From a virus, in the IMG/VR virus record IMGVR_UViG_3300031857_000110: a stretch of 64,000 nt of DNA, one strand, 5' to 3'. The position numbers and the translations under genes were made by a program. Below are positions 12,367 through 50,363 of the stretch, in pieces. The notes under the pieces are model-generated. The model did not search any database. It was not told the origin of the DNA and saw nothing but the letters and a program-made list of their open reading frames with translations. Positions within the stretch are counted from its first letter, which is position 1, and each line of letters opens with the position of its first letter.

Positions 12367-12380
12367 GGTAATTTGAGTTT

Positions 12381-16774: not shown

Positions 16775-17923
16775 ATGAATTTACTTAATGGCATTGTAGA
16801 TATATTCCCATCAATAGAACCACAAAATTTTTTGGAAACTCCAAAAAGAATTAAACTTGGATTTGATCCAACAACAGATTTTTTACATTTAGGTCATGCT
16901 GTTCTTTTAAGAAAATTAAGGCAATTTCAAAATGAAAATCATACTCCTGTAATAATTATAGGTGACTTTACTGCAAGAATTGGAGATCCAACAGGAAAAT
17001 CAAAAACTAGAAAACAATTAACCAAAGAAGAAGTAGAATTCAATACCAATGAATTTTTGAATACTCTTTCAAATTTTATTGACCCCGAAAAATCTGAAAT
17101 TATTTTTAATTCTAAACATTTAGAACAATTATCTCTATCTACAATTATACAATTACAATCATTGGTAACAGTAAATCAACTCCTAGCGAAAAGGGATTTT
17201 CATCAAAGATTTGAATTACAAAGCCCTATCAGTTTGCATGAATTTATGTATCCACTACTTCAAGGATATGATAGTCATGTAATATCATCTGAAATAGAAC
17301 TTGGAGGAATTGATCAAAAATTTAACATCTCAATGGGTAGAGATGTTCAAAGACATTTCAAAAATAAAAATGAACAAATTGGAATGTTAATGCCAATTTT
17401 ATGTGGTACTGATGGTGCCAATAAAATGTCTAAAAGTTTGAATAATGCAATAAAAATTGATGAACATCCTTTAATAATGTTTTCTCAATTGGAAAAAATT
17501 CCAGATAATTTAGTAGATGAATATATTCTTCTACTCACCGACTGTAATTTGGGAGATTTTTCTCCAGATCCTAGAGAAAGGCAAAAACAAATGGCCTTTG
17601 AGATTGTTTCAGAATTTTATGGTTCTGAAGTTGCTCTAAAGTCTATGAATGAATCTCAACAGATCGTTTTGTCTAATTCAAATATATCAGATGTCCCAGA
17701 GATAGTTGTTTCACATTTGCAGTTTCCATTACCTCTTGCAACTTTATTGAGAGAAACTAAATTATCAGATAGTTCATCTGCAGCAAGAAGATCAATTCGT
17801 TCAGGTTGTATTAAATTAGATGGGATTAAAATTACAGATGAAAATATTATGGTTGATATAAATGATATTGAAAATAAAATTATAAGAATGTCAAAGAACT
17901 CTTTTCATCGTTTTGTCATGTGA
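16775..17923 (+). CDS. tyrS: tyrosyl-tRNA synthetase (class I aaRS with C-terminal S4-like domain)
   Basis: HLGH (HIGH) motif, KMSKS motif, GGIDQ, C-terminal ARRSIRSGCIKLDGIKITD S4-like; length 382 aa. Confidence 0.75.
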   Translation: MNLLNGIVDIFPSIEPQNFLETPKRIKLGFDPTTDFLHLGHAVLLRKLRQFQNENHTPVIIIGDFTARIGDPTGKSKTRKQLTKEEVEFNTNEFLNTLSNFIDPEKSEIIFNSKHLEQLSLSTIIQLQSLVTVNQLLAKRDFHQRFELQSPISLHEFMYPLLQGYDSHVISSEIELGGIDQKFNISMGRDVQRHFKNKNEQIGMLMPILCGTDGANKMSKSLNNAIKIDEHPLIMFSQLEKIPDNLVDEYILLLTDCNLGDFSPDPRERQKQMAFEIVSEFYGSEVALKSMNESQQIVLSNSNISDVPEIVVSHLQFPLPLATLLRETKLSDSSSAARRSIRSGCIKLDGIKITDENIMVDINDIENKIIRMSKNSFHRFVM

Positions 17924-17940
17924 CAGTAGTTAAACTGTCA
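17921..17940 (+). repeat. inverted repeat TGACAGT-agttaa-ACTGTCA at tyrS stop
   Basis: Perfect 7-bp arms; no T-tract. Confidence 0.4.
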
Positions 17941-18349
17941 CTATGGAATACACACACTTCACTTCAGTTTGCTAAGATGAAAAAGAAACTTGGAGATTCC
18001 CCATGTTTAAAAGTAAGTTCTTTCCTTTAATTCTTTATCTTAGTTTACTCTTTATTGGAATTTCTTTTCCCTTTGCTATTCTAATGATTTATCCAGTATC
18101 GCCCACTCACAAAATTTTTTATGAATTCTGACAACTTTATTTTATGTTATTGTGTTACTCTTCTTTTTGGTTTCGTGGGGTTTGTTAGTTATGGTACTAT
18201 TAAAAATCAACCAGAATCTCTATATAGAGAAACTTTTAATAGATCTATTTCTTGTCGTGAAACTATAGGACTAAAACAAATAACAAATTTAGACTATATT
18301 TGTGGCAAACTTCCTCAAATCTCCGAATTCCATACACCTTCTAAATAAA

Positions 18350-19222
18350 ATGACACTCAAACTTACTGCAGTACATTTAGTTGATGAGGGATCTTATTTG
18401 GTTAAGTTCCCATATAATAATAAAAATATCTTGGTTTCTGGAGTTGTACCTGAAAGTTGCAATTATGTTGTAGTTTCTAGCCTTGATGAAATTGTAGAAC
18501 TTTATACACCATCAGCAATTCTAACGCATTATACAAATGATAATGATCCAACTCAAACCATAACCCCAACAATCTATCAACAACAAGTTGATATCCTTCG
18601 TGCTAAAGGAAATTATGATGATTTTTCTGGAGAATTAGTTTTCACAAATCTTGATGATGAATATGCATATAAAAAATTCATTAAAACTTGGAACCCTTTT
18701 TATGTTAAACAAGAAACCATAAAAAGACCAGTTGAAATTGAAATAACTGAAATTCGCACAAATTCTGGAGATCCAGATATTGTATCTTTATGGAACTCTC
18801 CTGCACTAGGAGTTGATCGTAAACTGTATTCAATTAATCGTCTGGATTTAGCTGTCAAAACTTTAAGAGCCATATGTGGTGATAATAATTGGAATCTTGA
18901 GATCCCAACACATTCTGGAATTTTATATGCAAAAATTAACAATAGTTATGTTTTTAAAGGTAATGAATTTAAATTTGAGACACATTTTATTGGCACTCTT
19001 GAACAATCAAAGAGTGAAAAAGCAAGAATTATTAAACTGATCAATGATGTAATAGCCATCCGTAATGCATGTAGGAATAAGATTAATAAAAGAACTGCTG
19101 GATATGTTTTAGGAAATCTTAGAATCATTAGTTACAGTGTTCAGTCTTCTACTAAATCTAATATATCAATGAAAATTAATGATCTTATTACTGATATTGA
19201 GAATGAGCTGATTAAGGAATGA
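18350..19222 (+). CDS. hypothetical protein
   Basis: ORF; start moved to an internal ATG preceded by taaa. Confidence 0.5.
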   Translation: MTLKLTAVHLVDEGSYLVKFPYNNKNILVSGVVPESCNYVVVSSLDEIVELYTPSAILTHYTNDNDPTQTITPTIYQQQVDILRAKGNYDDFSGELVFTNLDDEYAYKKFIKTWNPFYVKQETIKRPVEIEITEIRTNSGDPDIVSLWNSPALGVDRKLYSINRLDLAVKTLRAICGDNNWNLEIPTHSGILYAKINNSYVFKGNEFKFETHFIGTLEQSKSEKARIIKLINDVIAIRNACRNKINKRTAGYVLGNLRIISYSVQSSTKSNISMKINDLITDIENELIKE

Positions 19223-19423
19223 AAGCACCCAAAGAGTACAAACAATGGATCAATAGACTGAGAGCTTTATATTCCTCTTAGATAATCCACATATGGAAAG
19301 GAAATTAAACAACAATAAAAAGCATAGAAAAATAAAAATTGAGACAATTTAACAACTGTCCACCAAATCTCAAAATTCACAAAAAATCCCTTAGTATTAA
19401 CCTACAATCAACCAAAATCAACC

Positions 19424-19960
19424 ATGAGTGAACTTCCTGAATTTATTGCATTTCCTAAAATTCCACGTCTTCAAAAAGATTGTGTAGTTACTGAAAAAAT
19501 TGATGGCACTAATGGTGTTATCTACATCACTCTTGATGGTGATATGTTTATTGGGAGCCGAAATCGTTGGATTACTGCAGACTCAGACAATGCTGGGTTT
19601 CATCGTTGGGTGATGGAAAATAAAGCTGAATTAGAGAAACTTGGACCAGGTAGACATCATGGTGAATGGTGGGGAAGTGGAATTGGTCGGGGATATAATC
19701 TCCCCAAAGGAGAAAAGCGTTTTTCTCTTTTCAATGTTCATGTTTGGAATGAAGAGAATATTCCTAGCTGTTGTCATGTAGTTCCAACTCTTTACACTGG
19801 AGAATTCAATACTAATGAAATTGAAAATGCAATGTTAAGTCTCCAAGAAATGGGTTCCCATGCTGCTCCCGGTTATATGAATCCTGAAGGAGTTATGGTC
19901 TATCATGCTGCTGCTTGTATGTACTTCAAAGCTCCATTTGACAAAAACCACAAAGGTTAA
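19424..19960 (+). CDS. minimal RNA-ligase-like nucleotidyltransferase (motif I EKIDGTN, HHGEWWG, EGVMV, FKAP)
   Basis: Covalent nucleotidyltransferase motifs I, III/IV and V arranged as in Rnl5 or RNA_ligase (PF09414)-type enzymes. Confidence 0.55.
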   Translation: MSELPEFIAFPKIPRLQKDCVVTEKIDGTNGVIYITLDGDMFIGSRNRWITADSDNAGFHRWVMENKAELEKLGPGRHHGEWWGSGIGRGYNLPKGEKRFSLFNVHVWNEENIPSCCHVVPTLYTGEFNTNEIENAMLSLQEMGSHAAPGYMNPEGVMVYHAAACMYFKAPFDKNHKG

Positions 19961-19969
19961 AACAAATCA

Positions 19970-20734
19970 ATGAAATCTGAACTATTTCAATTTGCTGAAG
20001 TTGGTGGAGCTGTTCGGGATTCTTTTCTCGGAGTTCCTTCAAAAGATATAGACTTTGTTGCAATCCCAAATAATACAAATGATTGGAATTATGCAGATGA
20101 GGCTTTTACTAATTTAGTACAGGAATTATTTCATCTAGGATTCAAAGGATTTGATAGTAATAGTGGGAACTTCATTCTAAAGCCTGAATTTTTCACTGCT
20201 AGAGTGCAAGTCCCTAAAGAGAACCCTCTTCATCAACGTACAGTTGTGGCAGATTTTGTTCTATCACGTAAAGATGGACCAAGTTCTGATGGACGTAGAC
20301 CCGATTATGTTCTACCTGGAACTTTGCTTGATGATCTTAAGCGTAGAGATTTTACCATTAATGCAATGGCAGTCTTAGACGGCGAATTGGTAGATTATTT
20401 CGGCGGTCAAAAAGATCTAGAGGATCGCTTAATTCGCTTTGTTGGAGATCCACACGAAAGAATTGCAGAAGATGGTTTAAGAGTTATGAGAGCTTTAAGA
20501 TTTGTAATCACTAAAGATTTTATGCTCCATCCAGAGACCTATGATGCTATTAATTGCAGTTTAGGTGCACAGATGTTGACAAAAGTTTCTATTGAACGTA
20601 TTAGAGAAGAGCTGGAGAAAATGTTCACCTCAAATACATTGAAAACGATTTCTATTCTCAGTGGCCTTAAAGCTGATCTTCAAGAAGCAATTTTTAGAGA
20701 TGGTTTGCGTCTGATGCCGTCTTTGAAGCATTAG
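19970..20734 (+). CDS. cca: tRNA nucleotidyltransferase (CCA-adding enzyme or poly(A) polymerase head domain)
   Basis: GGAVRDSFLG...DIDF motif of class II tRNA nucleotidyltransferases; RDFTINA motif. Confidence 0.75.
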   Translation: MKSELFQFAEVGGAVRDSFLGVPSKDIDFVAIPNNTNDWNYADEAFTNLVQELFHLGFKGFDSNSGNFILKPEFFTARVQVPKENPLHQRTVVADFVLSRKDGPSSDGRRPDYVLPGTLLDDLKRRDFTINAMAVLDGELVDYFGGQKDLEDRLIRFVGDPHERIAEDGLRVMRALRFVITKDFMLHPETYDAINCSLGAQMLTKVSIERIREELEKMFTSNTLKTISILSGLKADLQEAIFRDGLRLMPSLKH

Positions 20735-21053: not shown

Positions 21054-21866
21054 ATGTCTCTCGTAAAAGTTGGTCTAGGTCTTGGTGCTGGCGTCCTGGT
21101 TCTTGCACTTATTTCCGGGCAATGGACAACAATCAATACAGGTGAAAACGGACTTTACACTGGATTTGATGGCCAGGTAAAGAATGAAGTTCTCACCCCC
21201 GGTATTAAATATGATGGTTTTGGTTCAATTAAAGTCTTCAATACTCGTAAGATTACGGTGACGGCAAATGACCTTCGCCCCAAGACTAAAGATAACACCA
21301 TCATGAAGGAGATGGATGTGACCGTAACCTACAGTATCAATCCCACCTCTCTCTATGATTTCTATACTGGTTATGATATGACCAATCACTCTATCAGCGA
21401 AAATGGACAAATTCAACTCATGTCCAGTTACATTGCTCGTCTGATTACTTCTGCTGTCAATCAATCTGTGGACGAATTCCCCGCTTTGGTTGTAAACAGC
21501 AGCCTTGGACAGGTTCAAGATACGATTAAGATTAATCTAAGCGAATCTCTAAAGAAAAATGGTCTTGAGGGAAAGATTACCATTGATTCAATCATTGTTG
21601 GTAAAGCTGATCTTCCTGATACTCTTGTTGAATCTGTGAACCGTGTGGTTGCGGCCCAATCTGCAAATAAAGAGCAACAAGTGAAGACTGAAACTGCCCA
21701 ATTGAAAGCTGAAGAGAACAAGGCTCTTGCATCTACTGTGACGGCACAATCTCTTGAGTATCAACGTCTTGAAGTTCTTCGTGAAGCGATGAGGAATGGT
21801 AGCATTCAAAAAATTCTGATTAATGGTGCCAATGTTCTTTCACTTTCTGATAATGTTTTTAAGTGA
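21054..21866 (+). CDS. SPFH/band-7 (prohibitin/HflK-like) membrane protein
   Basis: N-terminal TM helix; coiled-coil QSANKEQQVKTETAQLKAEENKALA...YQRLEVLREA typical of SPFH C-termini; locally higher GC. Confidence 0.5.
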   Translation: MSLVKVGLGLGAGVLVLALISGQWTTINTGENGLYTGFDGQVKNEVLTPGIKYDGFGSIKVFNTRKITVTANDLRPKTKDNTIMKEMDVTVTYSINPTSLYDFYTGYDMTNHSISENGQIQLMSSYIARLITSAVNQSVDEFPALVVNSSLGQVQDTIKINLSESLKKNGLEGKITIDSIIVGKADLPDTLVESVNRVVAAQSANKEQQVKTETAQLKAEENKALASTVTAQSLEYQRLEVLREAMRNGSIQKILINGANVLSLSDNVFK

Positions 21867-27627: not shown

Positions 27628-28866
27628 ATGGAACTCCGACTGCAACAAAAAAAGGCCATTGAAGTTCTTTCTCAGGCAAATAGAGGAATTATTGCAATGG
27701 CTCCAGGCTCAGGGAAAACTCTCATTCAAATTCATGATTCAAAAAGAATTTTTGAACAATCTGAAGAACCACAGACTGTTGTAGTTGTAGCGCCAAGAAT
27801 ACTTCTTGCTTCGCAGTTATCTTTTGATTATGGAAAGCACATTAATTGTGCTAAGTATCTCCATGTTCACTCAAAAATTGGAAAGGTAAATCATTATCAT
27901 ACAACAGATAAAGAAAATATCAGACAATGGTGTGAAATTCATAAGGAGCACCATAAACTAATTTTTACCACCTATCATTCACTCAAAAAGATTTATAAAT
28001 CAGGGATTACGGTAAATACATATATGTTTGATGAATCACATAATTCAACATCTGCTGGGTTTCATGAATATGTGAAAAAGGTAAGTGATAATAATCAAAG
28101 ATGCTTCCATTTTAGTGGTACACCTAGATTTAGCAGGGCACCTAAAAATCCGAAAAAGACAAAAAAACCTGGAATGAATGATCCAGTTTATGGTGAAATT
28201 ATAGTAAAAGCCACAGCAGCAGAAATGATTAAGCATGGTTATATCTTAAAGCCAAGGGTCATTTCTCATTATCTTGAATGGGTTGAAGAGAGAACTGCAC
28301 AACATGATGCAACAGATATCTTAAATATCATTAAGACATACAATCTTTCTAAACTTCTTATAAACGTAAGAAAAACATCAAATATGATGGAAATGCTTTC
28401 AGAGACAAATTTTCAAGAGTCTTTGAGAGAACTTGGCTATGATTTATTACATATTACTTCAAATTATGGTCCAGTGTATAATGGTAAAAAAATTAAAAGG
28501 GACAGATTTTTCCAACTCTTAGATAAGCTTGGTGAATCTATGGATAAAAAATATGTCATTTTAAATTATTCAATTTTAGGTGAAGGAATAAACATTAAAT
28601 CATTAGATGCTGTACTCTTACTAAGGCAACTAAATCTAATAAAACTTATTCAAACTATAGGGCGAGCAATCAGACTCTCTTCTGAGGATCAAAGGGCTAT
28701 TGATAATGGAAGCTTAAAGGCATGTGATTATATGAATTATCTTAAACCTGAAGGTTTAGTAATTATACCTGTTTATGATAAAAGACTTTTAGAGCAATCT
28801 AAAAGTATTACAACCACTGTTGAAGATGTCTATGAAAAGGGAGAACTCCCAATTATGCAAGTTTAA
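27628..28866 (+). CDS. SF2 DExH-box helicase (ResIII-like)
   Basis: Motif I APGSGKT, motif II DESH, motif III SGTP, motif VI QTIGRAIR. Confidence 0.7.
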   Translation: MELRLQQKKAIEVLSQANRGIIAMAPGSGKTLIQIHDSKRIFEQSEEPQTVVVVAPRILLASQLSFDYGKHINCAKYLHVHSKIGKVNHYHTTDKENIRQWCEIHKEHHKLIFTTYHSLKKIYKSGITVNTYMFDESHNSTSAGFHEYVKKVSDNNQRCFHFSGTPRFSRAPKNPKKTKKPGMNDPVYGEIIVKATAAEMIKHGYILKPRVISHYLEWVEERTAQHDATDILNIIKTYNLSKLLINVRKTSNMMEMLSETNFQESLRELGYDLLHITSNYGPVYNGKKIKRDRFFQLLDKLGESMDKKYVILNYSILGEGINIKSLDAVLLLRQLNLIKLIQTIGRAIRLSSEDQRAIDNGSLKACDYMNYLKPEGLVIIPVYDKRLLEQSKSITTTVEDVYEKGELPIMQV

Positions 28867-29822: not shown

Positions 29823-30197
29823 ATGAAAATCTCAACTTCTCTTAAATATTTTCAAGACAACTATCACTATGATATTCCTAAACTTGGTTCCAATTATAAG
29901 AATATTTTAAACTTTTGGATTTTTATTGATACATTAAATATCAACCAATGGAATAAAATTGAAAAAGCTTTTTATCTAATTGAACAAGGTTACAATCTAA
30001 CAGAAATTAAACACTTTGCTGCGGATTTAAACGGCTATGCATATGAAATTCAACTTTCCACATGGGGATGTCCATATAAAAAATATAATTTATCACTAAG
30101 ATCTCCAATATTTGCAGCTTATGAACTAATTGCAATGGATAAAATTCTTGATGAAGGAAAAACTCTACAGATTTTACCACTATTTTTAGATTTATGA
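29823..30197 (+). CDS. family-A divergent member 6
   Basis: MKISTS..NYKNILNFWIFIDTL and C-terminal LQILPLFLDL. Confidence 0.55.
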   Translation: MKISTSLKYFQDNYHYDIPKLGSNYKNILNFWIFIDTLNINQWNKIEKAFYLIEQGYNLTEIKHFAADLNGYAYEIQLSTWGCPYKKYNLSLRSPIFAAYELIAMDKILDEGKTLQILPLFLDL

Positions 30198-30781
30198 ACC
30201 CCATAAGAAAAACCAACTATCTTTCTATTGATTTAGAACTTAATACTGATGGAACACAAACATATGAAATTTGCGAAATTGGAGTAGCTCTAGGAAATAT
30301 TGATGAAATATTTTTAACAGATTCAAGGGTTATTAAAATTAAGCAGCCTCTATTTGAAAAAACTACAGAAATTACCAAAATTACACAAGAAGAGATTGAT
30401 TCTGGGATCTCATTAAATGAAGCTGCTCAATGGCTTTCTGAAATAATTGATACTCATAAGCCTTTTGTAAATCCAGTACAATGGGGTGTTAGTGATTCTT
30501 TTGAATTGTTAGCTGAATTTAAACAGAACAATATTAATTTTCCATATTTTGGAAGACGAATTATTGATGTAAAACACATCTTTCTTTTTATTGAAGCTGC
30601 ATATGGTAGAAGTCTTTCTGGTGGATTAAGAAGTGCAATGGGTAAACATAAGCTCAAATTTTTCGGTACTCCACATAGAGCAGAGTGTGATGCTCACAAT
30701 ACTTTAAGATTATTTTTTCACCTTTTGAAACGACAAAGAAGTCTTGAAGAAATTATAGTTAAATCTAAATCCATTTTTTAA
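30194..30781 (+). CDS. DEDDh 3'-5' exonuclease (DnaQ-like)
   Basis: Exo I LSIDLELN, C-terminal HRAECDAHNT (H-x4-D). Confidence 0.6.
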   Translation: MNPIRKTNYLSIDLELNTDGTQTYEICEIGVALGNIDEIFLTDSRVIKIKQPLFEKTTEITKITQEEIDSGISLNEAAQWLSEIIDTHKPFVNPVQWGVSDSFELLAEFKQNNINFPYFGRRIIDVKHIFLFIEAAYGRSLSGGLRSAMGKHKLKFFGTPHRAECDAHNTLRLFFHLLKRQRSLEEIIVKSKSIF

Positions 30782-32688: not shown

Positions 32689-34233
32689 ATGTCACTTAAA
32701 ATTTCCGAAAAAGCTAATCTTAATTATCTTGCAAAAGTTGTAAAACTAACAAATCTTAGAAAGCATCCAAATGCAGATAAATTACAGATAACCACTATTG
32801 ATGGAAATAATATCATTACTGGCTTAGATGCTAAGGATGGTGATCTTTATGTGTATTTTTCTCTTGAAAGTTCAATCAATTTGAATTATATTTCATTTTC
32901 AAATGGATTTAGGGAAAGCTCTTTAAATACTAATAAAGAAGTTGTTGGATTTTTTGAACCAAGAGGTAGAGTGCGGGCGATCTCTCTTCGGGGTGAAAAA
33001 TCATGTGGATATATTTGTCCAGTAAAAAATATCAATGAATGGCTTAATACCTTTACGTCTTTCAATATTACTGAAGAACATCAAGATGTAGAATTTGATA
33101 TGATTTGTGATACGGTAATGTGCGAAAAATATATAAATCGTGAAGCACTTCTTAAAATCTTAAAGGCCAATAAAACTCCAAAGGGTATTAAAAAATTAGC
33201 AAAAGAAACAAAGCTAATTGAAGGTCAATTCGCATTTCATGTTGATACTGCACATCTTCAAAAATATATCTATAAAATCAATCCGCATGATATCATTCAT
33301 ATTTCCAAAAAGCTTCATGGAACTTCTGCTATTGTTGGAAATATTTTGTGTAAGCGTAAATTATCGCTTAAAGATTCCATTGCAAGATTTTTTGGGGTAA
33401 ATGTAAATGAAACAGAATATCAATTGATTTGGTCTTCTAGAACAGTTGTAAAGAATGGCAACTATTATTTGTCTTGGCAAGAAACCCTCTGGAAAAATTT
33501 TCTATATTATCTCAGCAGTTACAAAAAACCATTTGAATCTTGGGTATCCTTGATTTTAGCTGAAGGTGACCAGAAAAGAGAAGAATTTTTTGGTGATTTG
33601 CAATATCATAGATCAACTCCTTTGCAACTCTATAAAGATTTGCAAGAGTGGAGTAAAATTATCAAAAATCCACAAACATCTAATCATTATTATTCATATG
33701 ATATTTGGAGGGATGTTGCTATCCAGCTTGAAGATTTTCTTTATAAAGGAATGACATTTTATTGTGAAGTTGTTGGTTATACAAAGGAAGGAGCATATCT
33801 TCAAAAGGGTTATGACTATGGTTGCGATCTAGGAAACTTTGCAATTTACATCTATCGCATCACATATACAAATCCTTCAGGGAAGATATTTGAATTTTCA
33901 ACTCAGCAAGTGAAGGCATATTGCAATAAACTTGGCCTAAACATGGTCCCAGAACTTTATTATGGGAGAGCAAAAGACCTATTTGACATTCCTGTAGATG
34001 ATAATTGGCATGATAATTTTATTGAATTAGTTAGCCAGAATTATCTTGAAAAGGATTGTGACATGTGTGTAAATAAAGTTCCAGATGAAGGTATTGTACT
34101 CCGTAAGGAAGATATTGACATTGAACCATACAAATATATAAGTTTTGCATTTAAACTGCGAGAAACAAAAAATGCAGATAATGGCGAAATTGATCTAGAA
34201 ACAATTGAATCTGAACAGTTAGGTGATGCATAA
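32689..34233 (+). CDS. RNA ligase (Rnl2-like nucleotidyltransferase) with N-terminal tRNA-binding OB (EMAP/Myf-like) domain
   Basis: N-terminus LRKHPNADKLQITTIDGNNIITGLDAKDGDLYV matches the tRNA-binding domain signature; motif I KLHGTS, motif IV EGIVLRKE, motif V FKL. Confidence 0.65.
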   Translation: MSLKISEKANLNYLAKVVKLTNLRKHPNADKLQITTIDGNNIITGLDAKDGDLYVYFSLESSINLNYISFSNGFRESSLNTNKEVVGFFEPRGRVRAISLRGEKSCGYICPVKNINEWLNTFTSFNITEEHQDVEFDMICDTVMCEKYINREALLKILKANKTPKGIKKLAKETKLIEGQFAFHVDTAHLQKYIYKINPHDIIHISKKLHGTSAIVGNILCKRKLSLKDSIARFFGVNVNETEYQLIWSSRTVVKNGNYYLSWQETLWKNFLYYLSSYKKPFESWVSLILAEGDQKREEFFGDLQYHRSTPLQLYKDLQEWSKIIKNPQTSNHYYSYDIWRDVAIQLEDFLYKGMTFYCEVVGYTKEGAYLQKGYDYGCDLGNFAIYIYRITYTNPSGKIFEFSTQQVKAYCNKLGLNMVPELYYGRAKDLFDIPVDDNWHDNFIELVSQNYLEKDCDMCVNKVPDEGIVLRKEDIDIEPYKYISFAFKLRETKNADNGEIDLETIESEQLGDA

Positions 34234-34276
34234 TAATTATCCTTTACTTTAACATTATTGTATTGTTTCTAAACCA

Positions 34277-34645
34277 GTGAAAATCTCCACCACCCATCAA
34301 AAATTTGCAGATCAGTTAGGCGACCAAACTGCTCTAGAATACCCTGAACGTTTTCTAGGACCTAATTGGAAGGATTTTTTGAACTTCTGGATTTATTTGG
34401 ACACTTTAAGCGCCGAAAAGCGTAAGATAGTTAGTAAGCGCTATAGTGCTTTAGCTGATACTTCAGTAATAAGTTTAACTCATGGTTCTCACTGGGTTCT
34501 TACATGGAATGCTGCTCAAGATATTATAGGTAATGAATGTGTATGGTCAGCTTTCCGGGTGATTGGGAGCAGTGTGAACATTGAACTCATCGCTTCACAT
34601 AAACTTGAGTCTCTTAAGTTTCTTCCCCTGTTTTTGAATTTATGA
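34277..34645 (+). CDS. family-A member 7 (GTG start)
   Basis: Conserved blocks. Confidence 0.7.
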   Translation: MKISTTHQKFADQLGDQTALEYPERFLGPNWKDFLNFWIYLDTLSAEKRKIVSKRYSALADTSVISLTHGSHWVLTWNAAQDIIGNECVWSAFRVIGSSVNIELIASHKLESLKFLPLFLNL

Positions 34646-34995
34646 AAATCTCTAGAACACATAAAAGATTTGCCGATCATTTAGATGACCAAACTGCTTT
34701 AGAATACCCTGAACGATTTCTAGGACCCAATTGGAAAGATGTACTGAACTTTTGGATTTATTACGATACTTTGAGTGATGATGTTCTTAGGTTAATTATT
34801 AGGCGCCATCAGGCTATAGAGGATTTAAATTATGTAAAGAATCTTTCTTGGAATGCTGCTGAAAATACTATAGGTGAGTATTATACGCGGGTAGCTTATG
34901 ATGTTACACATTCTCTTAGTTATTTAACCTGCGAACTCATTGGTTCACATAAGCTTGAGACTCTCAATTTTCTTCCTTTGTTTTTGAATTTATGA
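34642..34995 (+). CDS. family-A member 8
   Basis: Conserved blocks; ATGA overlaps on both sides. Confidence 0.75.
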   Translation: MKISRTHKRFADHLDDQTALEYPERFLGPNWKDVLNFWIYYDTLSDDVLRLIIRRHQAIEDLNYVKNLSWNAAENTIGEYYTRVAYDVTHSLSYLTCELIGSHKLETLNFLPLFLNL

Positions 34996-35450
34996 AACAT
35001 CTTCCATCTCTGCTTATTTTATGTGGACTTCCTGGTTCAGGTAAGAGCACTTATTGTAAACAATATTCAAATTCAAATTTTGTAAGACTTTCATCAGATG
35101 ATTATATTGAAAAAGTGGCAAGAGACCAAGGAAAAACATACAATGAAGTTTTTTCATATGCAATTAGAGATGCTGATAGATATTTTAAACAAAAATTAGA
35201 CTATTATGCAGACACTGAATATAACATAATTATTGATAGAACAAATCTTACTGTAAAAACTAGAAGAAAGATTATCAACAAATTTAAAAATCATCAAAAG
35301 ATGATTGTATTTTTTAATGTGCCATTAAATACCATAAAAGAAAGAAACATCAGGCCTGGAAAAATATTTTCTGAAGAAATGTTAGATGATATGTATAGTA
35401 GATTGGAAATACCAACAGAACTTGAAGCTCAAGTTGTGACAGTTAGCTAA
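34992..35450 (+). CDS. P-loop polynucleotide 5'-kinase (T4 Pnk kinase-domain-like)
   Basis: Walker A GLPGSGKST and IIDRTNL (compare T4 Pnk IISDTNL). Confidence 0.65.
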   Translation: MKHLPSLLILCGLPGSGKSTYCKQYSNSNFVRLSSDDYIEKVARDQGKTYNEVFSYAIRDADRYFKQKLDYYADTEYNIIIDRTNLTVKTRRKIINKFKNHQKMIVFFNVPLNTIKERNIRPGKIFSEEMLDDMYSRLEIPTELEAQVVTVS

Positions 35451-35501
35451 CTGTCCAAAGGTGACAGACTACAAAGGTACTCAATGTTATGATATGTATT
35501 A

Positions 35502-36206
35502 TTGATTCGGAAACTAATGAATTGCGTTCTTGTTGGGGACATTCATTCTCAATTTTCAAAACTTCAAAATGCTCTTAATTACATTGAAAATACTATTGAG
35601 GATTATTATATCATATTTTTAGGAGATGCATTTGATTCAAGATGTGAAGAATCAAATTCTGTTGGAGTCTACAAAACAATTAAAAATTTACAAGATAAAA
35701 ACAAAGCAACTCTCATTCATTCAAATCATCAATGGAAACTTCAACGATATCTTTATGGAAATCCTGTAAGAATTGATCAATCTCTACAGAGAACTCTTGA
35801 TGATTTTCAGAGTTCAGATGTTACATCTATTGAACTTTTAACTTGGCTTGAGTCTTTACCATTTGCTTGTGCATTTAAAGATATTAATGAACAAGAATAT
35901 CGCTGCGCCCATGCATATCATAGTTCTAAGCTTCTTATTCCTAGAACTTATGATGGCATACATTGTACTTATAAAGTAAGTGCAAAAATGCGAGATAAAT
36001 TGATTTATGGTGCATTATATGAGGGAACCCGGCTGTCATGGTGGGAACATGAATCAACAAATGAATGGATTCGGGTTTCTGGACATTATCATACTGTTGA
36101 AATCTCATATACAAAAAAAGCATTGGTATTGGATTCATGTTGCGGGGATGAAAATGGTCTTCTCTCTGTTTTTAATGTAAACACATGGGAGATTTTTCAA
36201 TTTTGA
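35502..36206 (+). CDS. calcineurin-like metallophosphoesterase (candidate 2',3'-phosphatase, bacterial Pnkp-like)
   Basis: GDIHS, GDAFDSR, SNHQ motifs. Confidence 0.6.
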   Translation: MIRKLMNCVLVGDIHSQFSKLQNALNYIENTIEDYYIIFLGDAFDSRCEESNSVGVYKTIKNLQDKNKATLIHSNHQWKLQRYLYGNPVRIDQSLQRTLDDFQSSDVTSIELLTWLESLPFACAFKDINEQEYRCAHAYHSSKLLIPRTYDGIHCTYKVSAKMRDKLIYGALYEGTRLSWWEHESTNEWIRVSGHYHTVEISYTKKALVLDSCCGDENGLLSVFNVNTWEIFQF

Positions 36207-36727
36207 ATATTAAGGATCATCTTATTGAAAGACATGTTGATCTAAATCTGCATAAGCCACTTCTAGATGATGAAAACATCTCTGCCATATTTTTATGCTA
36301 TAATTTATCTGGACAATTATGTGGCTATCAGAGATATAGGCCATTAGGAGATAAAAAGATTTTTAATAATCCATATCATGGTCGGTATTACACATATAGA
36401 AAGCAACAAACTGTTACAGTTTGGGGAGCAGAATCTTATTTCATTTCAAATGGCCCAATCTTTATAACTGAGGGAATTTTTGATGCAGCAAGAATTACAG
36501 AAAGAAATTGTAGTGCCTTTGCTATGTTATGTAATAGTCCACCAAAAGACTATAAAAATTGGCTCCAAATGTTAGCTAGACCAACTATTGCAATTTGCGA
36601 TAATGATCAGGCTGGCATTGAGCTTTCCAAGTTTACTGATTTTTATGAGATTGCTCCAGATGGTGATTTAGGTTCTTCTCCAAATGACTACGTTTCTTAT
36701 CTTTTAACTAAATATGCCAGTCTTTGA
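36185..36727 (+). CDS. Toprim-domain protein
   Basis: ITEGIFDA conserved Glu and ICDNDQAG DxD motif. Confidence 0.5.
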   Translation: MGDFSILNIKDHLIERHVDLNLHKPLLDDENISAIFLCYNLSGQLCGYQRYRPLGDKKIFNNPYHGRYYTYRKQQTVTVWGAESYFISNGPIFITEGIFDAARITERNCSAFAMLCNSPPKDYKNWLQMLARPTIAICDNDQAGIELSKFTDFYEIAPDGDLGSSPNDYVSYLLTKYASL

Positions 36728-36927: not shown

Positions 36928-37197
36928 ATGTCTTCTTTCTCTAACGCTCTTCAGCAACAAGATCCTTCTGCTGTTGTGTATCTGGATGTGAACGGTAACG
37001 TGATCGCTCTGATGCCCAACGAATACGAGGGGAAAACCCTGACCCAACTTTTCACCGACTTTGGTTCCCGACTCGGCACTAACGTTTCCCGCGTTACAAG
37101 CTTCACTATCAATGGTCAACAAGTGGGCGCCACCGCCGTTGTCCGCCCAGGCGAAACCGTTCGCGGCAACGTTCAAACTGACAGCAAGCAAGCCTGA
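36928..37197 (+). CDS. small GC-rich protein (89 aa), candidate beta-grasp or ubiquitin-like partner
   Basis: Size and position upstream of JAB and E1 genes; high-GC codons; no C-terminal GG. Confidence 0.35.
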   Translation: MSSFSNALQQQDPSAVVYLDVNGNVIALMPNEYEGKTLTQLFTDFGSRLGTNVSRVTSFTINGQQVGATAVVRPGETVRGNVQTDSKQA

Positions 37198-37213
37198 TCA
37201 TCCTTCAGATTAA

Positions 37214-38377
37214 TTGACCATGAGTCTACCTAGTTTCTGGGTAGACTCTATTTCTTTATCTTTTATTATGACATCTTCTAGATTCCTAAATCTTTATGCT
37301 AATTATCATGGTGATCAAACCGTTCTTGAGAATCCTGAGCAAGTTCTAGGACCAAATTGTAAAAGTATTTTAGACTTTTGGGAGAGCCTAGATGAAAGTG
37401 TTCTTAGAACTGAATTTGATGGTTCATTTGAGATCTATTCCTGTCCATGGGGGAAATATCTTAGGCCTTGCCGGGATCCTCTAGCTAATTCAGTAATAAC
37501 AAAAGAAAATTATGATAAGTTTGAAGTCGCAGAAAATGTCAATAAAATTCCATCAGATATTTGGACTGCATGGATTCTTCTCTGTTTTCATTTTGTGGAT
37601 AAAGTTCCAACAAAAATGGAAGTTCTTGTTCGTTTCTTGAGAAATGAAGAAAATCCATCTCAATTTATGGCAGTCGTCCCTAAACAATCTGTTACAGGGG
37701 TATCAGTAAAAGTTGGAAACTTTAATGATTGCTGTAACCTCTTAACTGGAGAAAAATACACATCATATCCACCAGAAGGTTGGATTCCATGTGGTTCTAG
37801 TCATAGCCATAATACATTGTTTTCTGGCTGGAGTGATGAAGATAATAAATATGAAATTCCAGATCCAGGGATTCATATTACGGTTGGGGAAATCAACTCA
37901 ACAAAACGAACATATCAAATTGCCGCTTCAGTGACAGGAAATTTGAAAAGATTCAAGATTAATTATACTCATCTCATTGATACAACATTTGATGAAGACT
38001 CTAAATTTCATAAAAATGTATTAGAATATGTTGAAATTAGTACAACAAAATATCAATCATGGCCTACGAATGTTAATTATAAACCCCTGCAGCGAAAACT
38101 TCCTCCAGCCAAAACAACTTTCAGCAATATTGAAGAATATCGTGAGTTTATGTATGGGGAATTCACTGATTTTGATGCCTATAAAAAAATTAGTAGAGAT
38201 CCATTTCATTATAGCGATTCGTTTAGATATGTAACTAATACATTAGAGGTTCATCAAATAGCTGATAGCATTGAAGATTTTATCAAAGAGAATCGCAATG
38301 ATGCTGATCAACTAGAAGAGTTGCAAAATACTCTGTCTTCATGTCTTATTGATCTTCAACTTGAACTAAACTCATGA
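37214..38377 (+). CDS. family-A N-terminal module fused to JAB/MPN+ (JAMM) metalloprotease-like domain
   Basis: N-terminus ENPEQVLGPNCKSILDFWESLDES aligns to the family-A block; HSHNTLFSGWSDED matches the JAMM motif HxHx7Sx2D exactly. Confidence 0.5.
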   Translation: MTMSLPSFWVDSISLSFIMTSSRFLNLYANYHGDQTVLENPEQVLGPNCKSILDFWESLDESVLRTEFDGSFEIYSCPWGKYLRPCRDPLANSVITKENYDKFEVAENVNKIPSDIWTAWILLCFHFVDKVPTKMEVLVRFLRNEENPSQFMAVVPKQSVTGVSVKVGNFNDCCNLLTGEKYTSYPPEGWIPCGSSHSHNTLFSGWSDEDNKYEIPDPGIHITVGEINSTKRTYQIAASVTGNLKRFKINYTHLIDTTFDEDSKFHKNVLEYVEISTTKYQSWPTNVNYKPLQRKLPPAKTTFSNIEEYREFMYGEFTDFDAYKKISRDPFHYSDSFRYVTNTLEVHQIADSIEDFIKENRNDADQLEELQNTLSSCLIDLQLELNS

Positions 38378-39195
38378 CATCCATTCTTTTTCCCGAAACG
38401 CTTCCTTCTGGGCTTGTTAATCTATTTCCACCAAAAATCAGTGCAATTTCATATAATTATTCTGGAGATGGATTGCTTTTAAGGGCTCATATGAAAGATA
38501 AATTTAGACGTTTGCAACAAGATGGTGAATATGCTGCAAACTTTCTTATGTGTCCCATGATTTTTCAGCAAACTTTGGAAATTAATAACCCTGAAACTAG
38601 ATTTCAAGTAAGAGAAACTCCCAGCCATTATCCAGAAACCAGAGTATATTTACAGGGAACAAAAATAGTAGATAATAATATTTTTACAACAGTAAAGGAT
38701 AATATGTCAAATGTATGTGATAGCACTTTTTTAGTTTGCTGGGGTGGAAATTTTAATGTAAAGAGTATAAAAACAATGAAAGGATTTATTGATCTTTTCT
38801 TTAATAGTTATTTTAATGGTGATTATACTTCACCAAAGGCATTAAGGACATCTGAAGAAAATTGTATTGAGATTAGAGGTGAAATTGCAGAAGATTCTTT
38901 TGAGGCCACTAATTATAAGCTCATTTCAAAGGATGCAAATGCAATCTATACTATTCATAGGCATGATAATCCTTCCATTTTCTTTTGGCTTAAATCTGCC
39001 GGATTTAATCCAATTGTAGAAAATTCTGACATTATGTTAGTTCCACTTAAGAGTGTTATCCTAACGGATAATGGAATTGATTATCCTGGATTTGTAACAC
39101 CTATTGATCTTTGCCGTAAGAAATGGTTCATTCTCCCTGATGGGAAATTTGTTGGGCAGATGTCCAGTTCACAGACTGTCCGTAACCCCACGTAA
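38374..39195 (+). CDS. hypothetical protein (273 aa), operon partner of JAB and E1
   Basis: ATGA overlap with upstream gene; no secure motif. Confidence 0.45.
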   Translation: MTSILFPETLPSGLVNLFPPKISAISYNYSGDGLLLRAHMKDKFRRLQQDGEYAANFLMCPMIFQQTLEINNPETRFQVRETPSHYPETRVYLQGTKIVDNNIFTTVKDNMSNVCDSTFLVCWGGNFNVKSIKTMKGFIDLFFNSYFNGDYTSPKALRTSEENCIEIRGEIAEDSFEATNYKLISKDANAIYTIHRHDNPSIFFWLKSAGFNPIVENSDIMLVPLKSVILTDNGIDYPGFVTPIDLCRKKWFILPDGKFVGQMSSSQTVRNPT

Positions 39196-39242
39196 AATCC
39201 CTAAAACCTCCTAGATTAAAAAAGCCTACAACACACTCAAAA

Positions 39243-39956
39243 ATGTTTGATAAAGTTTATCTGCTCGGAATTGGCGGGGGTGGAAGTCACCTTGCTCCAG
39301 TTCTCGTCCAAACTCTCCGCTCACACCCAAAAACTTCATATAGTACAATCACCTTTATTGATGGTGATAAATTTGAGAAAAAAAACCAGAGCCGACAGCT
39401 TATGGAGCCTAGCGATGTTGGCCTTAACAAGGCTACTTCAGTTGCTAGAATCTGTGAAGATCGTGGATTTTCTGATGTATATTCAATTGAAGATTATGCA
39501 AACTTTGAGAATCTAGTTCCACTTCTTGAAGATGCTCAGTCTCCACTTGTGATTGCATGTGTAGATAACAATGCAACCAGGGCAGCTATCATTGATGCGA
39601 TCCAAAAAGTTTGCATTGATGATAACAAGAAGAACTTCTTCTTTATCACACCTGGTAATAGTGATGCGACCGAAGACCCTAAGGGTCAAGTTTGTTGGTG
39701 GGGGGCAATCAACGGGAAAACTTATGGTCAAAACCCCAAAGAATATGATCTAGACATTCAAAATCCTGATGATTTTATTCCAAGGATTGGTGGATGTATG
39801 GATATGAGCGAATCTCATCCACAAGTTCTTTCAGCAAATCATCTTGCGGTGTCTCTCACCCTTTCTCTCGTTCAAACACTGTTGGATGAGAAATTGGATC
39901 ATCGTAAGTCTCAAATTCGCTTCAACTGCTACAATCTTACCACTGCCATTTCCTGA
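39243..39956 (+). CDS. E1-like / ThiF-MoeB family adenylyltransferase
   Basis: GIGGGGS Rossmann loop; IDGDKFEKKNQSRQLMEPSDVGLNKATSV matches the ThiF D-x-D...N-R-Q...G-x-K block; IACVDNNATRAAI. Confidence 0.65.
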   Translation: MFDKVYLLGIGGGGSHLAPVLVQTLRSHPKTSYSTITFIDGDKFEKKNQSRQLMEPSDVGLNKATSVARICEDRGFSDVYSIEDYANFENLVPLLEDAQSPLVIACVDNNATRAAIIDAIQKVCIDDNKKNFFFITPGNSDATEDPKGQVCWWGAINGKTYGQNPKEYDLDIQNPDDFIPRIGGCMDMSESHPQVLSANHLAVSLTLSLVQTLLDEKLDHRKSQIRFNCYNLTTAIS

Positions 39957-48869: not shown

Positions 48870-48929
48870 CGCCGCTTGACAAGCCCGCGTGAATCCCCTA
48901 GTATCAATGAGCAACTAGGGGATTCCCCC

Positions 48930-50363
48930 ATGATCATTCTCAGCTCTGAACAGAAACTGGCAATTGAAGCCGCAAGAAGACAGAATAGTAATTTAATTAT
49001 TGAAGCTGTCGCAGGAGCAGGAAAAACTTTCACACTAATTGAAATTCTCAAAATACTAGAGGGTTCAATTGCCTTTACAGCTTACAATAAAGATATTGCA
49101 ACTGAAATATCCCAAAGAATTTCTCCACTGAATCTTGATAATGTAAATGTTGGTACAATACATTCAATGGGGTTTGGTTCTATTCGTAGAGCATTCAAAA
49201 ATGTTAAGGTTGATGGAAATAAACTCAATAAATTAGCCAAAGAAGAGTTTAATGGAGAATATGAATATCTACGTGATATCGCAATAAAGGGTGCAGAATT
49301 GGCAAAACAAGTAATGCCAAAAACCTTTGAAGACTGGCATAAAATGTTTGATCATTATAATTTATGGGATATGGTTTCCGAAGATGCTGCAATTGATGCT
49401 GCTCAATATTTGTTAAATGTTTCAAATAGTGTTAAAAATGTTGTAGATTTTTCAGATATGATCTATATGCCAATTCAATTCAATTTAAGAATTTGGCAAT
49501 ATGATGTGATTCTATTAGATGAAGCTCAAGATACAAACCGAGCAAGACGAGAATTGATAAAGAAAATGTTAAAGCCTAATGGCATTCTTATTGCTGTAGG
49601 TGATCCTCATCAGGCGATTTATGGTTTCACTGGGGCTGACCACAATTCTTTAAACATAATCAAAGAAGAATTTAATTCAGAGGTTTTAAGGCTATCAACA
49701 ACCTATAGATGCCCAAAGAAAATTGTAGAATATGCTCAAAAATGGGTAGGACATATTAAAGCACATGAATCTGCACCTGAAGGACTATTAGATTTCTGTA
49801 AAATTACAGATATAAATCCTAATCCAAATGATGCAATAATTTGTAGAAATACTCGCCCCTTAATTGAAATTGCTTACAAACTATTAAGAGAAAATATCTC
49901 ATGTAAAGTTGAAGGTAGAAAAATCGGTGAAGGGTTAATTAAATTAATTAATAAGTGGAAGAGTGTCAAAACTGTTTGTCAATTAGAACAAAAATTAGAC
50001 GAATGGGCCGAAAAAGAAATACAAAAAAATAAAGATAAAGAAAAATTCACAGTATGTCAAGATATTGAAGATAGAGTTCAAACAATTAAAGTTTTTATTG
50101 AGCAATGTGAAGAAACTGATGGAATTGCAATTTTAATTCAAAAAATAAAGTCTTTATTTGAAGATAATACTAGCGGTTGTGTTATTCTTTCTACAATTCA
50201 TAAAGCAAAGGGAAGAGAATGGAATCACGTTTATGCATTAGGAATGAATAAGTATTCTCCAAGTAAATGGGCCAAAATGGAATGGGAAATTAAACAAGAA
50301 AAAAATCTTTGTTATGTCCAAGTTACTAGATCTAAACATCATCTTACTATTGTTGAAGCATAA
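48930..50363 (+). CDS. SF1 UvrD/PcrA-like helicase
   Basis: SEQKLAIEAA...IIEAVAGAGKT (UvrD motif I), DEAQD (motif II), C-terminal ILSTIHKAKGREWNHVY (UvrD_C); start at an ATG behind an AGGGGATTCCCCC RBS. Confidence 0.7.
   Translation: MIILSSEQKLAIEAARRQNSNLIIEAVAGAGKTFTLIEILKILEGSIAFTAYNKDIATEISQRISPLNLDNVNVGTIHSMGFGSIRRAFKNVKVDGNKLNKLAKEEFNGEYEYLRDIAIKGAELAKQVMPKTFEDWHKMFDHYNLWDMVSEDAAIDAAQYLLNVSNSVKNVVDFSDMIYMPIQFNLRIWQYDVILLDEAQDTNRARRELIKKMLKPNGILIAVGDPHQAIYGFTGADHNSLNIIKEEFNSEVLRLSTTYRCPKKIVEYAQKWVGHIKAHESAPEGLLDFCKITDINPNPNDAIICRNTRPLIEIAYKLLRENISCKVEGRKIGEGLIKLINKWKSVKTVCQLEQKLDEWAEKEIQKNKDKEKFTVCQDIEDRVQTIKVFIEQCEETDGIAILIQKIKSLFEDNTSGCVILSTIHKAKGREWNHVYALGMNKYSPSKWAKMEWEIKQEKNLCYVQVTRSKHHLTIVEA

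Follow-up and report, generated by a model that had tools for sequence, protein, structure and literature searches.

Here we show that a 64,000-nucleotide stretch of viral DNA (IMG/VR record IMGVR_UViG_3300031857_000110; hereafter the window) encodes, between positions 32689 and 36727, an Rnl5-type RNA ligase, a polynucleotide-kinase-like protein and a Pnkp-type metallophosphoesterase, which, judged by homology and conserved gene neighbourhood, probably constitute a three-gene heal-and-seal RNA repair module. The finding is real and coherent, and is a modest variant of a known theme: heal-and-seal repair by phages has been described before, in some jumbo phages with phosphatases of the calcineurin type. 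An earlier, sequence-only reading of this region had proposed a split Pnkp-type cassette consisting of a tRNA-binding RNA ligase, a kinase, a calcineurin-type phosphoesterase and a Toprim protein, with two genes of a paralogous family (family A) interleaved. Its open reading frame (ORF) coordinates and the ligase and kinase motifs that it quoted were all found in the translations, and the ligase, the Pnk-type kinase and the calcineurin-type phosphoesterase were recovered through Pfam and PHROG matches; its views on the tRNA substrate, the novelty of the ligase architecture and the place of the Toprim protein require revision, as set out below.

All genes of the window are co-oriented, and its composition (about 33% G+C) and content are phage-like. 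The six ORFs of the locus were verified on the plus strand and are tightly packed in one orientation, with 4-nt gene overlaps at 34642 and 34992:

32689-34233, + strand: Rnl5-type ATP-dependent RNA ligase, 514 aa (Pfam, PHROG, alignment, fold)
33463-33696, + strand: helical insertion of the ligase, about 75 aa (aa 259-336), between motif Ia and motif III (alignment, model)
34277-34645, + strand: family-A paralog, 122 aa, between ligase and kinase
34642-34995, + strand: family-A paralog, 117 aa, between ligase and kinase
34992-35450, + strand: stand-alone P-loop 5'-OH polynucleotide-kinase-like protein, 152 aa (profiles, residues)
35502-36206, + strand: stand-alone Pnkp-phosphatase-type metallophosphoesterase, 234 aa with a TTG start (profiles, fold)
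36185-36727, + strand: DnaG-like Toprim / primase-core fragment, 180 aa (phrog_849)

The ligase is identical to a database protein encoded on a 249,543-bp sequence, and the source phage, at about 250 kb, looks like a jumbo cyanophage; its nearest cultured relatives are Synechococcus phages B3 and B23 (about 244 kb), with 42% ligase identity. With the 4-kb region as query, megablast gave zero matches among 50,697 phage records, and searches were therefore done at the protein level. PADLOC returned nothing relevant for any gene of the proposed cassette.

The ligase matches Pfam families PF09414 (RNA_ligase, E 9.9e-7) and PF21189 (PHA02142 OB-fold, E 1.7e-6; aa 14-112, nt 32728-33024) and, over the whole protein, phrog_968 'RNA ligase' (E 1.6e-53), so that its motifs are recoverable by hidden Markov models (HMMs). 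Its translation contains the peptides HPNADKL (aa 26-32), KLHGTS (aa 208-213), EGIVLRKE (aa 467-474) and FKL (aa 488-490). Across 20 aligned homologues, K208 of motif I (the lysine of KLHGTS, nt 33310-33312), E360 (motif III), E467-G468 (motif IV) and K482 (motif V) are invariant, K484 (motif V) is nearly invariant, and S250-R251 and Y389-R390 are invariant or nearly so, motif Ia reading SSRTVVKN. A conserved linker of about 90 aa joins the OB domain to motif I, and there is no C-terminal domain: beyond motif V, which stops near aa 490 of 514, a tail of about 25 aa forms a short acidic helix.

Such an order of domains (OB, then nucleotidyltransferase (NTase), no C domain) defines the Rnl5 clade. 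What had been regarded as an unusual fusion is thus the hallmark of a known group, with a Pfam domain of its own and at least 877 database relatives; matches to the ligase occur in 379 deposited phage records, including hundreds of mycobacteriophages annotated 'RNA ligase'. The architecture was described in 2004-2007, phage homologues included (PMC1807946, PMC7261155). DraRnl has 'no C domain at all', an N-terminal module like the PheRS B2 OB fold, and a homologue in Aeromonas phage 44RR2.8t (PMC1807946), and the Rnl5 clade extends from bacteria and their phages to archaea and unicellular eukarya (PMC7261155).

Structure prediction agrees with this placement. The AlphaFold (AF2) model of the ligase has a mean predicted local distance difference test (pLDDT) score of 80 and is poor only in a linker at aa 163-173 and in the insertion at aa 259-336 (pLDDT <50 in the latter). 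In a Foldseek search of the PDB, the top 13 matches are all NgrRnl, over the full length (E 2.8e-12 to 1e-10; target-normalised template modelling (TM) score 0.58-0.67), followed by T4 Rnl2 and REL1 over the NTase only, while OB-only matches are PheRS beta subunits and Trbp-type tRNA-binding proteins. At the level of sequence, the NTase is nearer T4 Rnl2 than NgrRnl: a profile of the 20 homologues matched the T4 Rnl2 NTase at E 1.2e-5 and the NgrRnl N domain at E 0.012 (N-terminal part), motif I reads K-L-H-G, the version of T4 Rnl2, and not K-x-D-G, that of NgrRnl, and a single-sequence PDB search gave a weak match to T4 Rnl2 alone (E 1e-3). The proposed assignment to Rnl2 consequently holds for the NTase sequence but not for the architecture. 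Given that the score against TIGR02306, the DraRnl equivalog, is far under its cut-off (35.4 bits against 151, with only the N domain aligning), the ligase is, on profile scores, a member of a distinct phage subfamily (PHA02142 / phrog_968) with Rnl5 architecture. The insertion at aa 259-336 is confined to the nearest clade and missing from most aligned homologues, and a shorter insert occupies the same site in two more distant ones (P0076 and P0061).

The sequence-only reading had taken the N-terminal OB domain as a tRNA-binding domain pointing to the repair of cleaved tRNAs. The ligase scores below threshold against tRNA_bind (E 0.011, 16 bits, cut-off 27). While the OB domain is homologous to PheRS-B2 and Trbp folds, the main role of that of NgrRnl is to promote lysine adenylylation of the ligase, and Rnl5 enzymes seal duplex nicks with an RNA 3'-OH strand (PMC7261155). 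In view of this literature, the step from a tRNA-binding domain to a tRNA substrate was rejected, and the OB domain is no evidence for such a substrate.

The kinase matches AAA_33 (E 1.1e-20), KTI12 (E 1.9e-11) and phrog_505 'polynucleotide kinase' (E 1.8e-14), and contains GSGKST (aa 15-20) and IIDRTNL (aa 80-86). It also matches positions 9-135 of TIGR04075 (bacter_Pnkp; E 8.1e-8) and positions 3-141 of phrog_8238, a 737-position kinase-phosphoesterase-ligase profile. When a profile of the stand-alone clade was compared with the PDB, it grouped with PSTK (E 1e-14), T4 Pnk (E 1.1e-13), CthPnk (E 1.5e-9) and Pnkp1 (E 2.7e-9), far above UMP kinases (best E 8.5e-6), which separates it from unrelated kinases of the AAA_33 family. 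The essential residues of T4 Pnk are K15, S16, D35, R38, D85 and R126 (PMC2831316). Five of these six are kept, as K18, S19, D36 (the general base), D82 and a lid arginine (R118/R121); the clade shows no variation at K18, S19, D36, D82 and R118 but does at R121, and the alignment of the lid arginine is one position off. The likeness to T4 Pnk claimed earlier stops at Arg38, which aligns with Ile39, a residue invariant in the clade (SSD-x-x-I-E), and D-x-x-R is retained by other ligase-linked kinases. Loss of this arginine is compatible with polynucleotide kinase activity, since an Arg38 equivalent is also missing from mammalian PNKP, an enzyme with a preference for duplex nicks and gaps (PMC2831316). 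The ORF consists of the kinase domain alone, without a C-terminal DxDxT HAD phosphatase. Multiple copies of such kinases were seen in two other phages: four tandem 160-aa Pnk-like paralogs lie directly upstream of the ligase in one metagenomic phage (L083, 6207-8154), and two paralogs occur in another (L087, 8110-9205).

The phosphoesterase matches Metallophos (E 2.4e-10), positions 174-302 of phrog_8238 (E 2.4e-12) and positions 218-293 of TIGR04075 (E 5.9e-8). Both healing enzymes therefore match the same two fused Pnkp models, which supports the module. The PDB entry 4j6o, the phosphatase of CthPnkp, was a weak match in a single-sequence search (E 0.02) and the top match of the family profile (E 8.7e-11, the next at 5e-4). 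It also ranked first in Foldseek (E 2.2e-12, TMq 0.78, 21% identity) when queried with an AF2 model (pLDDT 94) that had been predicted using an alignment of database homologues; the runners-up were lambda phosphatase (E 4.4e-10, TMq 0.57) and ApaH-type enzymes. By profile and predicted fold, the closest relative of the phosphoesterase is the bacterial Pnkp phosphatase module, and its likeness to that enzyme, not to the HAD phosphatase of T4, was thus correctly recognised from the start. The essential residues of the CthPnkp phosphatase are D187, H189, D233, R237, N263, H264, H323, H376 and D392 (PMC3675462), and eight of these nine have invariant counterparts in the phage protein (D13, H15, D42, N75, H76, H137, H195 and D211). 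The protein is predicted to be a binuclear 2',3'-cyclic phosphodiesterase / 3'-phosphatase of the Pnkp-phosphatase type. Given that its database homologues are 229 aa long, translation probably starts at the ATG at 35517, which gives 229 aa. Among the Pfam families that had been named for the locus, AAA_33, Metallophos and RNA_ligase (PF09414) were therefore matched, tRNA_bind remained sub-threshold and the Toprim protein had no match.

Homologues of the phosphoesterase also occur in other settings. That of Synechococcus phage S-CBWM1 (L092, 6007-6714; 36% identical; annotated 'putative serine/threonine protein phosphatase') adjoins a gene for nicotinamide mononucleotide (NMN) adenylyltransferase, and eight tRNA genes form an array about 5 kb away.

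The neighbourhood of the ligase was then compared across phages. The ORFs of 80 IMG/VR loci encoding ligase relatives, together with those of the earlier loci, were searched with iterated HMMs, giving 88 loci with a ligase. In 48 of the 88, a Pnk-like kinase is encoded no farther than 10 kb from the ligase, nearly always on the same strand and less than 5 kb away; 29 of them are about 300 aa long and 19 are stand-alone. All inspected ligase-linked kinases of about 300 aa bear the DxD(G/A)(T/S) HAD motif, which marks them as T4-type Pnkp, and a metallophosphoesterase of the type found in the window is present in 13 of the ligase loci. When ligases were clustered at 60% identity to remove redundancy, 42 lineages remained, 21 of which have a kinase within 10 kb (11 long kinase-HAD proteins and 10 short stand-alone ones). 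Because ligase and kinase genes, in some cases with that of the phosphoesterase, are neighbours in many independent phage lineages, the clustering of these genes is not due to chance. Furthermore, the 3'-healing enzyme next to this ligase is a HAD domain in some lineages and a metallophosphoesterase in others, a swap that is expected if the proteins belong to one pathway.

A compact block in the order helicase, ligase, kinase, small acidic ORF and metallophosphoesterase is conserved in L009, L016, L021, L024 and L045-L048, where ligase identity to the window is about 41-52% (35% in L021; best tblastn segment); an HNH gene then follows the block in L009 and B23. The closest relatives, L003 and L012, share the gene arrangement of the window. 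The ancestral arrangement looks like the compact helicase-ligase-kinase-x-phosphoesterase block, from which the window would have been stretched by family-A and other insertions.

The small acidic ORF of the sister clade (115-125 aa; ...FFFVDD...W..WSVKAPAV..LNEFR..I) always lies directly upstream of the phosphoesterase. It comes after the kinase or, in B23, after a helix-turn-helix (HTH) gene behind the ligase. A BLAST search of the window for this ORF gave no match. Its positions are as follows:

L001, 9643-10020: acidic ORF
L009, 8865-9236: acidic ORF
L016, 9448-9810: acidic ORF
L021, 11854-12216: acidic ORF
L024, 7733-8095: acidic ORF
L045, 8994-9341: acidic ORF
L048, 9579-9923: acidic ORF

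By linking homology and conserved synteny, a sequence of steps may be proposed for this module. A host RNase (an anticodon nuclease or other metal-independent ribotoxin) would break an RNA, the Pnkp-type metallophosphoesterase would strip the 2',3'-cyclic or 3' phosphate to leave a 3'-OH, and the P-loop kinase would move the gamma-phosphate of a nucleoside triphosphate onto the 5'-OH with D36 as general base. The Rnl5-type ligase, self-adenylylated on K208 with the help of its N-terminal OB domain, would then pass AMP to the 5'-phosphate and join it to the 3'-OH end of the RNA. Enzymes of the Rnl5 clade carry out Mn-dependent sealing of 3'-OH/5'-phosphate duplex nicks with RNA on the 3'-OH side. 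Since characterised members seal duplex nicks, the ends of the break are most likely kept together by base pairing; structured RNA, for instance a stem of tRNA or rRNA, and annealed halves are candidates. What is repaired is probably RNA that serves translation, an area in which this phage invests heavily.

The system resembles several known ones in part. With DraRnl and NgrRnl (Rnl5), the ligase shares domain order, all six ligase motifs, the lysine nucleophile and the full-length predicted fold, and the neighbourhood of DraRnl likewise includes a DEDDh exonuclease and a 5'-OH kinase (PMC5397189); the window ligase differs in its length (514 aa against about 340), with the linker of about 90 aa and the insertion of about 75 aa as extra parts. 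With CthPnkp of the bacterial Pnkp-Hen1 system, the module shares the chemistries of a P-loop 5'-OH kinase and a binuclear metallophosphoesterase 2',3'-phosphatase. Here, however, these reside on three polypeptides in a phage, whereas CthPnkp is a single kinase-phosphatase-ligase protein of a bacterial operon, and the ligase is of Rnl5 type, not an Rnl4 domain. No Hen1 or methyltransferase family was found in Pfam scans, each of 10 ORFs, that took in the locus, its flanks and most ORFs of at least 150 aa in the 64-kb window, and membership in the bacterial Pnkp family was rejected because the proteins are unfused, the ligase is not Rnl4 and Hen1 is missing from the scanned ORFs. As in T4 Pnkp with Rnl1/Rnl2 and in Pnkp1-Rnl-Hen1, healing and sealing are assigned to separate proteins, the kinase domain is homologous to those of T4 Pnk and Pnkp1, and many ligase relatives adjoin genes for T4-type kinase-HAD Pnkp. 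The window nevertheless differs from T4 in that a metallophosphoesterase unfused to the kinase replaces the DxDxT HAD domain, the kinase has no Arg38 equivalent, and the ligase has the architecture of neither Rnl1 nor Rnl2. Lacking HAD, fusion, Rnl4 and (in the scanned ORFs) Hen1, the module is thus a member of neither the T4 Pnkp nor the bacterial Pnkp system. A survey of jumbo phages describes RNA ligases of the ATP-grasp fold (in that paper's classification) together with Pnk, phosphoesterases, CCA-adding enzymes and tRNAs, and a calcineurin-like phosphatase in a few of these RNA-repair sets (Iyer et al. 2021, PMC7824862); the ligases named in its account of these sets are Rnl1, Rnl2 and RtcB, and that account names neither an Rnl5-type ligase nor the helicase-ligase-kinase-x-phosphoesterase block.

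The remaining genes of the locus do not appear to belong to the module. Family A comprises at least 14 paralogs over 16033-46854, each a module of about 120 aa that is fused to other sequence in some genes, with the consensus MKIS..H..FA...YPE.FLGPNWK.VLNFWIYLDTL...ELIGSHKL...FLPLFLN. The copies begin at the following positions:

Family-A starts: 16033, 16395, 26684, 27037, 28820, 29823, 34277
Family-A starts, continued: 34642, 40439, 42108, 44014, 45723, 46258; also the N-terminus of 37214-38377

Two of these genes are indeed interleaved with those of the module, as reported earlier, but they cannot be demonstrated to be members of it. The family was rejected as a component since its at least 14 paralogs are dispersed, it is restricted to the closest relatives L003 and L005 and absent from the sister clade that retains the module, and it has no match in Pfam, PHROG, PADLOC or PDB.

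The Toprim protein, which the sequence-only reading had counted in the cassette, is regarded here as a neighbour only, primase-like and absent from most other ligase loci. It matches positions 148-304 of the 435 of phrog_849 'DNA primase' (E 4.1e-31) and carries E96 in TEGIFD and D139-x-D141 in DNDQAG. It has no Pfam or NCBIfam match and no zinc finger; its profile retrieved DnaG primases only from the PDB, at a non-significant E of 0.35, and a single-sequence PDB search was empty apart from spurious lamin matches. Its gene overlaps that of the phosphoesterase by 22 nt. Among the 88 ligase loci, it occurs outside the window only in the nearest relative, L003, the other 86 being without it. Elsewhere, the B23 homologue lies about 70 kb from the ligase and about 3 kb from a gene for a CCA-adding enzyme, a Jerseyvirus homologue follows a DNA helicase and has Pol I also adjoining, and one deposited homologue is annotated 'exonuclease'. 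The protein is probably a replication protein and not a member of the repair module. In the L003 copy (11834-12379; 79% DNA identity), the GAA codon of the window (Glu83) is replaced by an in-frame TAA, leaving two ORFs of 84 and 66 aa; this could reflect a pseudogene, a sequencing error or read-through.

Other features of the window are listed below, with similarity values where available:

2291-2374: tRNA-Leu(taa)
3627-9761: 2044-aa ORF, no Pfam match
10793-11533: ATP-grasp protein, R2K clade
16775-17923: tyrosyl-tRNA synthetase
19424-19960: minimal NTase-only RNA ligase, 178 aa (PF09414 E 2.7e-11, phrog_548 E 4.8e-27)
19970-20734: CCA-adding tRNA nucleotidyltransferase, directly after the 178-aa ligase
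21054-21866: SPFH/Band-7 protein
27628-28866, + strand: SF2 helicase (ResIII/DEAD + Helicase_C), 412 aa (Pfam, PHROG)
30194-30781, + strand: DEDDh (RNase_T-type) 3' exonuclease, 195 aa (PF00929 E 3.5e-9)
36928-37197: 89-aa ORF
39243-39956: ThiF/E1-like protein (PF00899 E 1.4e-11, PADLOC BilD E 5.8e-7)
42540-43115: HNH endonuclease
48876-50363: UvrD-type helicase

The 178-aa ligase contains the motifs KIDGTN, SRNR, GEWWG and EGVMV, and belongs with its neighbours at 16775-20734 to a second group of genes centred on RNA. The SF2 helicase gene is found directly upstream of the ligase in L001, L009, L015, L016, L021, L024 and L044-L048; L003, L005 and L012 have it upstream at a distance of 5-7.5 kb. 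In the window, the two are set apart by about 3.8 kb of other genes, among them those for a DenV-like glycosylase and a DprA-like protein. In 11 loci, a DEDDh exonuclease gene occurs no more than 10 kb from that of the ligase, and in L007, L017, L019 and L020 it directly precedes the ligase. Directly downstream of the locus (36928-39956) is a possible ubiquitin-like conjugation set made up of the 89-aa ORF, a 387-aa protein and the ThiF/E1-like protein. The 387-aa protein has a family-A-like N-terminus and a JAMM-like H-x-H-x7-S-x2-D pattern (HSHNTLFSGWSDED), which was recognised by eye only, with no HMM match.

A number of observations weigh against an RNA repair module, and these bear either on the substrate of the three enzymes or on their working together. 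With regard to substrate, the same module could act on nicked duplex DNA or on RNA-DNA junctions of the phage genome, which we consider rather unlikely; its substrates might then be primer remnants, nicks that contain ribonucleotides, or nicks with 3'-phosphate/5'-OH ends. End healing by the kinase and the phosphatase would follow the example of mammalian PNKP in single-strand-break repair, and the Rnl5 ligase would seal nicks with a ribonucleotide on the 3'-OH side, possibly with the SF2 helicase and the DEDDh exonuclease. The Rnl5 ligases studied to date seal nicks and have an uncharted physiology, and the genetics of DraRnl point to DNA-damage recovery: its loss slows genome reassembly after irradiation, its gene is co-operonic with that of the DEDDh-like DR_B0095 and near a 5'-OH kinase gene, and template-directed sealing by Rnl5 accepts DNA on the 5'-phosphate and template strands (PMC5397189). 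Gene neighbours also favour a DNA-linked role, given that an SF2 helicase gene consistently adjoins that of the ligase in the sister clade, a DEDDh exonuclease gene recurs nearby, and the DenV-like glycosylase and DprA-like protein genes separate helicase and ligase in the window. In addition, the kinase shares its lack of an Arg38 equivalent with the nick- and gap-preferring mammalian PNKP (PMC2831316), and the phosphoesterase weakly matches the ligase-associated DNA-damage-response PdeM model (E 1.4e-4). By a wide margin, however, the best match of the phosphoesterase is the RNA 2',3'-phosphatase of CthPnkp, no DNA-repair metallophosphoesterase is recognisable in its 50 best Foldseek matches, and both DraRnl and NgrRnl require RNA at the 3'-OH end (PMC5397189, PMC7261155). 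The partner of the ligase elsewhere is T4-type Pnkp, the classic tRNA-repair enzyme, although it is DNA-active too (PMC3592404), and the gene set of the phage is rich in tRNA-centred genes; tRNA-Leu, the tyrosyl-tRNA synthetase, the CCA-adding enzyme and the second RNA ligase in the window favour an RNA- or tRNA-linked role. If the SF2 helicase, the nick-sealing Rnl5 ligase with its insertion, the Arg38-less kinase and the Pnkp-type phosphoesterase are taken in combination, the module of this clade may be viewed as a duplex-break specialist, devoted to single-strand-break repair of ribonucleotide-containing or RNA:DNA hybrid nicks with 3'-phosphate/5'-OH ends. The damage could be inflicted, for example, by host nucleases on replicating phage DNA. 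Such a specialisation is quite unlikely in our estimation; if true, it would give Rnl5 ligases, whose physiology is uncharted, a defined role.

With regard to joint action, approximately half of the 42 ligase lineages are without a kinase within 10 kb, the kinase homologue of phage B23 lies about 40 kb from its ligase, and in S-CBWM1 the 12.7 kb examined around the phosphoesterase gene contain no ligase, nor is this phage among those listed as matching the ligase. Counts from a promoter and terminator scan were not above those of shuffled controls, and no operon boundaries can therefore be claimed. The phosphoesterase residue R47 (GDxFDS-R47), although invariant among close homologues, stands one residue after the position of CthPnkp Arg237. 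One might regard the three genes as mere neighbours with unrelated jobs, the phosphoesterase being a NinI/lambda-type protein phosphatase or a hydrolase of Ap4A or nucleotide signals, the kinase acting on nucleotides or small molecules, and the ligase working alone. Relatives of the phosphoesterase are deposited as Ser/Thr phosphatase or 'PhoS', it also matches phrog_246 (NinI-like, 7.8e-7), PrpE (2.4e-7) and ApaH (2.1e-6), and lambda phosphatase and ApaH come next in its structural ranking; AAA_33 is a broad family, with weaker UMP/CMP-kinase matches for the kinase. The Pnkp-specific matches nonetheless rank above these alternatives, both proteins match fused Pnkp-type models, and the ligase-kinase neighbourhood recurs in 21 of 42 lineages, with a three-gene block persisting at about 35-52% ligase identity; we consider unrelated functions very unlikely. 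It is also extremely unlikely that the Toprim protein is a fourth component, a nuclease that would trim or generate ends in the manner of RNase M5 or OLD-type enzymes. Its 22-nt same-strand overlap with the phosphoesterase gene, a position kept in L003, the annotation of one homologue as 'exonuclease' and the proximity of the B23 homologue to a CCA-adding enzyme gene would fit this role, but every Toprim profile match is a DnaG-type primase, the gene is missing from the other 86 ligase loci, and its copies in B23 (far from the ligase), in Jerseyvirus (beside DNA helicase and Pol I) and in L003 (with an in-frame stop) argue otherwise.

A heal-and-seal RNA repair module thus offers the best explanation of the locus. 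It provides functional names for genes annotated 'hypothetical protein' in the cultured jumbo cyanophages B3 and B23 and in many metagenomic phages. It also indicates that phage Rnl5-type ligases are regularly partnered with end-healing enzymes, and that HAD phosphatase and metallophosphoesterase have been exchanged beside the same ligase. The main residual interest lies in access to the physiology of Rnl5 ligases, which has been described as uncharted: the clade with the compact block has cultivable members, and is a tractable system in which to address whether these ligases serve the repair of RNA or of ribonucleotide-containing DNA.

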